Source of the DNA: Heptranchias perlo
Taxonomy: Eukaryota
NCBI RefSeq assembly: GCF_035084215.1
Contig: NC_090334.1
Coordinates: forward strand, 73,904,001 to 73,968,000
Reading direction: 5' to 3'
DNA length: 64,000 nt
The first letter of the stretch is position 1; the number at the start of each line of letters is the position of its first letter. Under the pieces are notes generated by a model. It saw nothing but the letters and a program-made list of their open reading frames with translations. It ran no database searches and was not told the origin of the DNA. Position numbers and translations under genes: made by a program. This document shows positions 54,151 through 55,042 of this stretch, one piece after another.

Positions 54151-55042
54151 CTGTAATGTACATGTAATGAATCTGTAATGTACCTGTAATGAATCTGTAA
54201 GCTATAATCTGTGTTGAGTGTGATGCAATGAGGCACCCTAGAGTGTGATGAATTGTAGTTATGTACAATGTGTTCACTGAATGGTACTTGCTGTAACCTG
54301 CAAATTGTATAATCTGTATTGTGTACGTTTGGAATGTGATATGACAACTGTATTGCTGCAAATTTTATGAAGTATATTTTATGAATAAAGTATATTTTTG
54401 GAAAAAAAAAGGCCGATCTCCCAGGACAAGGCTCGCCCATTGCACTTCGGATGTGCTGACGCCTGCGATGTCCCCAAATGCGGGATACTCGACTGCAAAA
54501 TTTGTGATAGTGGGACTGCGTTCGCGCTCTCCCCTAGTTTATGACTAAAAACAGAAATAACATGAGCTCTCAGAGCGGTGAGTTTTTAATGGAGTAACTT
54601 CCATGCTCGAATCACTGTCAATCCGAGCGATCAGCCCCAAGGACTTGCTGGCCGATTAATAGTGGTGTTTGTCGTTCAACGTCCTGTTAGTTTTTCAGCA
54701 AAATACCGAGAAACCCATAGATATTAAAGCATTTCCGGGACTGGATGCTGAGATGCAGCCGCCGCAAAAGCGCGATGAGGAAAGGCCACAGTTTAGGACG
54801 CTCTCGCCATCGTACGCCGAGGGACTGGAAACCAAAAGAAACTCCTCGTAATGAATGTGTAATGACTGTAATTGCTGTAATGTAACTGTAATCTGTATTG
54901 ATTGCAAGTGCAATGAGGCACCCTGGAGTGTCATGAACTGTATTTATCATGTATGACCTGTAGTTGTCTTGTGATAGTTGCATTGTTCTGTTTACCTTTA
55001 CAAATTTTATGAATAAAGTATATTTTTGAAATATAAAAAAAA
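54151..55042 (+). mobile_element. Composite retroposed insertion: Tx1 3'UTR-polyA + U1 fragment + flank + Tx1 ORF2 end/3'UTR-polyA
   Basis: 15-bp direct repeat atattcaaaatagtg at 54136-54150 and 55043-55057. Two related tails end in (aattttatg)aataaagtatattttt-g-A-rich at ~54410 and ~55042. Degenerate AAAAKAR*GKATV* at ~54755-54796 resembles the C-terminus of fish Tx1-clade ORF2. Confidence 0.8.
54411..54536 (+). pseudogene. U1 snRNA-derived segment (approx. nt 37-164), 5'-truncated
   Basis: ggccgatctcccaggacaaggctcgcccATTGCACttcggatgtgctgacgcctgcgatgtccccaaatgcgggatactcgactgcaaAATTTGTGatagtgggactgcgttcgcgctctcccct is colinear with vertebrate U1. The U1A loop (ATTGCAC), Sm site and SL4 are present. 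The 5' splice-site-pairing end is absent. Confidence 0.93.

Follow-up and report, generated by a model that had tools for sequence, protein, structure and literature searches.

How does the polyA tail of a LINE come to run directly into the interior of a U1 snRNA, and was a U1 gene itself the target of the element? As of 2015, the accessible text of PMC4640811 gives as snRNA-gene-targeting elements only Keno and Utopia (on U2), Dada-U1 and Dada-U6, and a tree legend in the accessible part of PMC4494074 shows U5 as a further Tx1 target. A LINE site at U1 nucleotides (nt) 35-37 would, if true, add a target and show the choice made by AP-type endonucleases shifting between snRNAs, and the origin of LINEs and SINEs with U1 heads would become testable; as no more than a hot spot, it would be a modest addition to repeat biology. 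An initial annotation of this locus proposed that its donor had been a U1 gene, or a U1-headed SINE, interrupted at nt 36/37 by a site-specific Tx1 element. In this work we analyze the locus within the window, that is, the whole 64-kb stretch of DNA in which it lies, and compare it with contigs from several organisms. The reading we favor, and to which we give roughly even chances, is that LINEs of the L1/Tx1 type recurrently insert at U1 nt 35-37 and that one such site was copied here by 3' transduction.

Methods

Contigs from four of 20 sequencing runs, X3 (organism A, a possible source of the window), X5, X12 (organism D) and X14 (organism E), were compared with the window, using an alignment likeness threshold of 80. 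The pieces listed for comparison amount to 32 of 3998, eight per run, and the tail-side identity of junction contigs is an estimate rather than a reading of letters. Whether a contig bridges a junction was judged by a 31-letter rule. Contig depths were summed where families are compared, and summed depth is not equal to copy number. The consensus for the snRNA 3' box was taken from the accessible text of PMC9006982.

Results and discussion

A LINE tail abuts U1 at G37

U1 (RF00003) is the sole Rfam family reaching its gathering score in the 64-kb window, with a match at 54374-54535 (73.6 bits, E-value 2.5e-16). In the Rfam alignment, G37 of the model corresponds to 54411 and A35-A36 to the final two A of the nine-A run that closes the first LINE tail (Table 1). 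Genuine U1 similarity begins at 54409-54411, and model positions 1-34 align over the AT-rich letters of the tail, mostly as mismatches. A 10-letter motif of the U1 5' end has no occurrence on either strand of the 64-kb window. The initial annotation had described an A-run leading straight into G37, a polyA tail overlapping A35-A36 and the loss of U1 nt 1-34, and each of these points is borne out by the alignment, the last one also by the missing 5'-end motif. An intact or functional U1 gene is rejected, because nt 1-34 have no match and the end that pairs with the 5' splice site, together with a complete stem-loop I, is consequently absent. The fold z-score of the remnant (54409-54535) is 0.20, not above that of shuffled sequences.

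Anatomy of the composite insert

The junction lies inside an 892-bp unit that is enclosed in its entirety by an exact direct repeat of 15 bp, the target-site duplication (TSD), which the initial annotation does not mention. When the 3' flank was shuffled 2000 times, no repeat of this length arose. Within this unit, tail 1 is followed by U1 from nt 37 to its end, a 3'-box-like flank, the remnant of an ORF end and tail 2. A polyA signal, a polyA tail and a TSD of the TPRT type, common to Tx1 and L1, are present at the insert. Both outer junctions are covered by X3 contigs with no differences (records 17 and 24), and in organism E the alignment of a depth-2 contig (X14 record 9) covers 53990-54150, stopping exactly where the 5' TSD copy ends. 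The target site of the insert itself is unlike U1 nt 30-50, and the composite landed outside U1.

Table 1. Features of the composite insert and its target-site duplication
Feature	Coordinates	Strand	Basis
5' TSD copy, 15 bp	54136..54150	+	Exact repeat; X14 record 9 stops here
Tail 1: 5'-truncated LINE 3' UTR with AATAAA at 54384 and a nine-A run at 54402-54410	54151..54410	+	Sequence; very high summed X3 depth
U1 snRNA from nt 35/37 to the 3' end, A35-A36 shared with polyA, Sm-site-like word at 54499, decayed	54409..54535	+	Rfam RF00003
3'-box-like motif	54543..54555	+	AAARNNAGA half matched in full; GTTT half matched at 2/4
Spacer, read as U1-gene 3' flank	54536..54751	+	X3 depth; X3 records 20, 21 and 22; X5 record 30
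LINE ORF last-codon remnant, DAAAAKAR*GKATV*	54752..54796	+	Translation; cover in X3, X5, X12 and X14
Tail 2: relative of tail 1, a 3' UTR with AATAAA at 55012 and an A-rich end	54797..55042	+	Likeness to tail 1
3' TSD copy	55043..55057	+	Exact repeat; X3 record 24

The two tails are 79% identical over 103 nt and 91% over their last 35 nt, the terminal 35 nt of tail 1 recurring at 55004-55038. The ORF-end remnant comprises 14 codons only; at its internal stop (54778) other copies, which cover it in all four runs, have Trp, and a loose end in X14 prolongs it upstream without a stop, in a frame derived by hand. This remnant is putatively the end of a Tx1 ORF2 and would resemble the Tx1 ORF2 ends of cartilaginous fish. 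In a motif scan of all six frames of the window, the sole finds were five FADD words of CR1-like type, and a Tx1-like ORF was absent.

Past the end of U1, at a distance of 12 nt, begins the AAARNNAGA half of the snRNA 3' box, with a chance of about 0.01 for one start per 20-nt slot. Because this motif follows the U1 end, the sequence suggests that the U1 piece probably derives from a gene together with its flank and not from a copy of the mature RNA. The spacer reaches an X3 depth of 190-520, versus about 11 in the unique flanks, and is therefore multi-copy in organism A, while the interval 54560-54735 has no cover in organisms D and E.

Spacer, ORF end and tail 2 (54536-55042) also form a unit of their own, multi-copy in organism A at a depth of approximately 20-40 times single copy and with copies about 90% alike; a sister copy has a depth of 280 in X5, a run guessed to be RNA (X5 record 30). 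This unit could be a non-autonomous SINEU-like family. One relative starts at 54568 behind unlike sequence (X3 record 21), as expected of 5'-truncated daughters, and another includes the U1 3' end (X3 record 20), U1 being internal in the window copy.

These observations raise the question of whether the U1 junction arose at the level of RNA rather than in a U1 gene. A SINEU-like retrocopy of U1, flank and tail 2, 5'-truncated at the U1-70K loop, may have joined the polyA of a LINE through the AA microhomology, either by landing in the A-run of tail 1 as a nested insertion or by template switch, and recurrence might follow from stalling of the reverse transcriptase at the U1-70K loop. A-runs are present at both ends of the block from U1 to tail 2, and for this reason a nested insertion, or a template switch, fits the locus equally well. 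The multi-copy state of the spacer-tail-2 unit and the depth of its sister copy in the presumed RNA run point in the same direction, and so do SINEU and Tx1-Mar elements, which acquire pieces of U1 and U2 by template switch according to the accessible text of PMC4494074.

The junction recurs in two other organisms

Among the eight pieces listed for each run, a tail-end motif continues into U1 in register in three from X12 and one from X14, and in none from X3 or X5. The gap across the inner junction in X3 and X5 is uninformative, since the record lists had passed a filter and do not even include the allele of the window itself there. The X12 contigs span 54377-54514 (record 1, depth 7), 54381-54514 (record 2, depth 9.6) and 54384-54450 (record 3, depth 58), and the X14 contig spans 54381-54472 (record 10, depth 13). 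Two of these contigs, X12 record 1 and X14 record 10, pass the 31-letter rule for bridging; X12 record 2 is borderline and X12 record 3 falls short, with 27 letters on the tail side. The window and the four listed contigs, from two other organisms, thus share a precise 3' junction at one target base, within 0-3 gap letters. A second X14 contig covers 54413, its tail side lying outside the listed pieces.

The junction contigs of D and E might be lenient alignments of A-rich flanks, the window junction then being a one-off. A likeness threshold of 80 would allow such alignments, and two of the records are aligned to their very ends. However, the tail sides show an estimated 1.5-12 differences per 27-34 nt, as derived from U1-only records, against the 11-17 mismatches expected of pure polyA and the more than 12 expected of random 34-mers; in a control, none of the 127,023 34-mers of the window came within 12 mismatches of the tail end. 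In X12 record 1 and X14 record 10, moreover, the alignment breaks off at the tail motif before the contig itself ends, and the start of the former (54377) is the equivalent of 55005, where 140 X12 tail contigs begin aligning. We regard an artefact as highly improbable.

A single ancient fusion of tail and U1, since multiplied and passed down to organisms A, D and E, would account for the use of the same base in all three organisms, and the depth of X12 record 3 (58, several-fold above that of its neighbors) would agree with amplification. Against such common descent, the junction contigs differ from one another in U1 letters at 54413, 54416 and 54417, and the window's tail body and spacer are uncovered in D and nearly so in E, which makes this explanation distinctly unlikely. 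As the U1 letters differ and the window's spacer has no cover, the D and E contigs seem not to be copies of the window composite, and separate events are suggested. Their tails belong to other families, since they share only the last 35 nt or so with tail 1. Under random insertion, we would expect 0.002-0.007 junctions in D and fewer than 0.001 in E, as rough estimates with summed depth standing in for copy number; given a tail-to-U1 junction in two other organisms, the site is therefore not random.

The same data weigh on the RNA-level origin outlined above. Organisms D and E have the junction without the spacer-tail-2 carrier, none of the 15 joints listed (there are 12 further ones) connects a tail to another U1 position, and known chimeras, as far as the accessible text of PMC13174262 describes them, have the snRNA 5' of the LINE. 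For an RNA-level origin, truncation would also have to fall at one fixed point in all three organisms; we consider such an origin unlikely.

Within U1 itself, the interval 54411-54419 (3' strand of stem I) sets the window apart from the majority of U1 contigs in D and E. One contig of depth 58 in X12 lacks both of the listed stem I changes and has one extra G. There are hints here of two U1 sequence classes.

A proposed preferred site rather than strict specificity

The tail element is not strictly U1-specific, and nearly all related tails lie elsewhere. By rough estimate, only about 0.02-0.2% of tail-end depth enters U1 (approximately 0.02% in D and 0.16% in E). Loose tail ends are heterogeneous, numbering at least 41+72+92+56 in X12, with an agreement of 0.32-0.38, and at least 4+10+12+2 in X14. 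In X3, tail 1 has a depth of 33,763-78,690 versus 8,588 for U1, the depth summed over the tail-1 family being thousands of times that of a single copy, and one tail-1 relative continues into non-U1 sequence (X3 record 18). A target-specific family has been defined as one with the target in more than 20% of its flanks (Kojima 2015, accessible text of PMC4494074). The pooled tails remain below this value, in a pool where the motif brings together many families and a small subfamily may be masked.

That the tail-1 family as such is a sequence-specific, U1-targeting Tx1 we find very unlikely. The junction, the 3'-box-like flank and the precedent of Keno speak for it, but the excess of tail-1 over U1 depth and the non-U1 flank in X3, the mixed tail ends in X12 and X14 and the insert's own non-U1 target all speak against it. 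For the tail family as a whole this strict version is already contradicted, and it survives only as a small subfamily. Of the original proposal of a U1 gene cut by a site-specific Tx1, the interrupted gene thus gains from the 3'-box-like flank and the recurrent junction, and strict specificity is lost. The initial annotation had set its proposal against random flanks and an absence of U1 genes hit at nt 36/37; we find flanks that are mostly random, yet U1 is struck repeatedly at the same base. By analogy, the behavior resembles a weak Keno-type preference directed at U1, and the Tx1 label is putative.

A model for the origin of the insert

In L1 3' transduction, a downstream flank is copied by read-through, and the insert described here resembles the outcome of that process. 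We favor a recurrent insertion site followed by 3' transduction because the TSD encloses the whole unit, a 3'-box-like motif follows U1, the junction recurs and the spacer-tail-2 unit is multi-copy. Under this model, polyA-tailed LINEs of the L1/Tx1 type in this animal group would insert mostly at dispersed sites and repeatedly into U1 genes at nt 35-37, where nicking of the bottom strand at the TT that faces A35-A36 may prime reverse transcription on the polyA. One U1 gene so interrupted would already have had an older LINE 3' fragment some 215 bp downstream. Transcription would then have passed through the polyA signal of tail 1, the U1 remnant and its flank, ending at the AATAAA of tail 2, and a 5'-truncated copy of the read-through RNA would have entered a site outside U1, duplicating 15 bp of it; this last step matches the observed anatomy, which a single event could have produced. 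The preference itself may be a hot spot common to dispersed families, or else it may mark a small subfamily that prefers U1 and has the tail-end motif in common with the others. It counts against the recurrent-site reading that neither a full source element nor the U1 5' half nor a PSE or promoter is seen in the window, whose copy is 5'-truncated.

Relation to known elements

The closest parallel is provided by Keno, a U2-specific member of the Tx1 clade, and Utopia, an element of the RLE type, the 3' flanks of which start at the same site, U2 nt 39, according to the accessible text of PMC4640811. In these elements as in ours, the 3' end of a non-LTR element meets the gene of an Sm-class snRNA at one constant base shortly before nt 40, which is nt 39 for U2 and nt 37 for U1; they differ in that the target here is U1, the preference is weak, the element is known from tail-end copies and its clade is putative. 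Membership in Keno is rejected, as Keno targets U2 nt 38/39 and the window's only Rfam match at gathering score is U1.

Dada-U1, as described in the accessible parts of PMC3706591 and PMC8869645, is a DDE DNA transposon that likewise inserts into U1 genes at a fixed site, but its site lies further 3' (stem-loop II/III), its TSD is 6 bp and it has no polyA. With polyA joined to U1 at nt 35-37 and a TSD of 15 bp, the insert is rejected as a Dada-U1 copy. Elasmobranchs are apparently among the lineages without Dada, as far as the same text of PMC8869645 goes.

Mammalian snRNA/L1 chimeras are also TSD-bounded composites with a polyA, but the snRNA in them lies 5' of L1 and not behind the polyA (PMC13174262, accessible text), and 3' truncation prevails among human snRNA retrocopies (65%; PMC4476161, accessible text), whereas U1 here is 5'-truncated and lies 3' of the LINE tail.

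In crocodilians, from which alone SINEU is reported in the accessible text of PMC4494074, U1 heads occur in SINEU-2, where the junction lies at nt 53-58, and in three Tx1 families. SINEU and Tx1-Mar share with our insert the movement of U1-derived sequence with polyA-tailed, Tx1-type retroelements, and in some families a weak target preference, yet the accessible description has the 5' part of U1 as a head, while here the 3' part and its gene flank stand behind a polyA. If an element joined U1 at nt 37 and duplicated about 15 bp of its target, U1 nt 1 to approximately 51 would stay on its 5' side, close in length to the heads of about 50 nt in SINEU-2 and Tx1-Mar. It is possible, though doubtful, that a dedicated Keno-like Tx1 lineage targets U1 nt 36/37 across cartilaginous fishes and that the crocodilian U1 heads are remnants of target sites rather than products of template switch; if true, U1 heads would be read in from the U1 promoter.

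A search of the literature, covering title listings and the accessible papers, found no U1-targeting Tx1. The junction pattern had no match in the metagenome contig collection, the tail motif none in viral contigs and the ORF-end pattern none in viral or prokaryote contigs. The tail motif has five matches in metagenome contigs, all of 17-30% GC and with no polyA or U1 behind, which we judge to be chance.

Other features of the window

The repeat content of the window suggests a cartilaginous fish as host. Pfam searches of three ORFs of the window returned RVT_1 twice and one weak GIY-YIG. A stop-free reverse transcriptase frame of 514 aa (45096-46640, plus strand; RVT_1), presumably CR1-like, has related pieces at approximately 25380-26800 and 32450-35200, and a GIY-YIG-like fragment slightly below the Pfam cut-off (22183-22563, minus strand) is putatively Penelope-like. 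A young, short MITE-like repeat with palindromic internal arms is found at 47434-48206, 42538-42755, 23131-23259 and 12024-12176, its copies being 90-100% identical. The inverted pair at 52801-52895 and 53553-53640, 92% identical over 63 nt and separated by about 700 nt, probably consists of two oppositely oriented copies of a short repeat. An assembly gap of 136 N (14201-14336) falls within a purine/pyrimidine simple repeat, and a tandem array at 2790-4075, about 96% identical at 66-bp offsets and likely to have a finer unit of 33 bp, yields long spurious ORFs.
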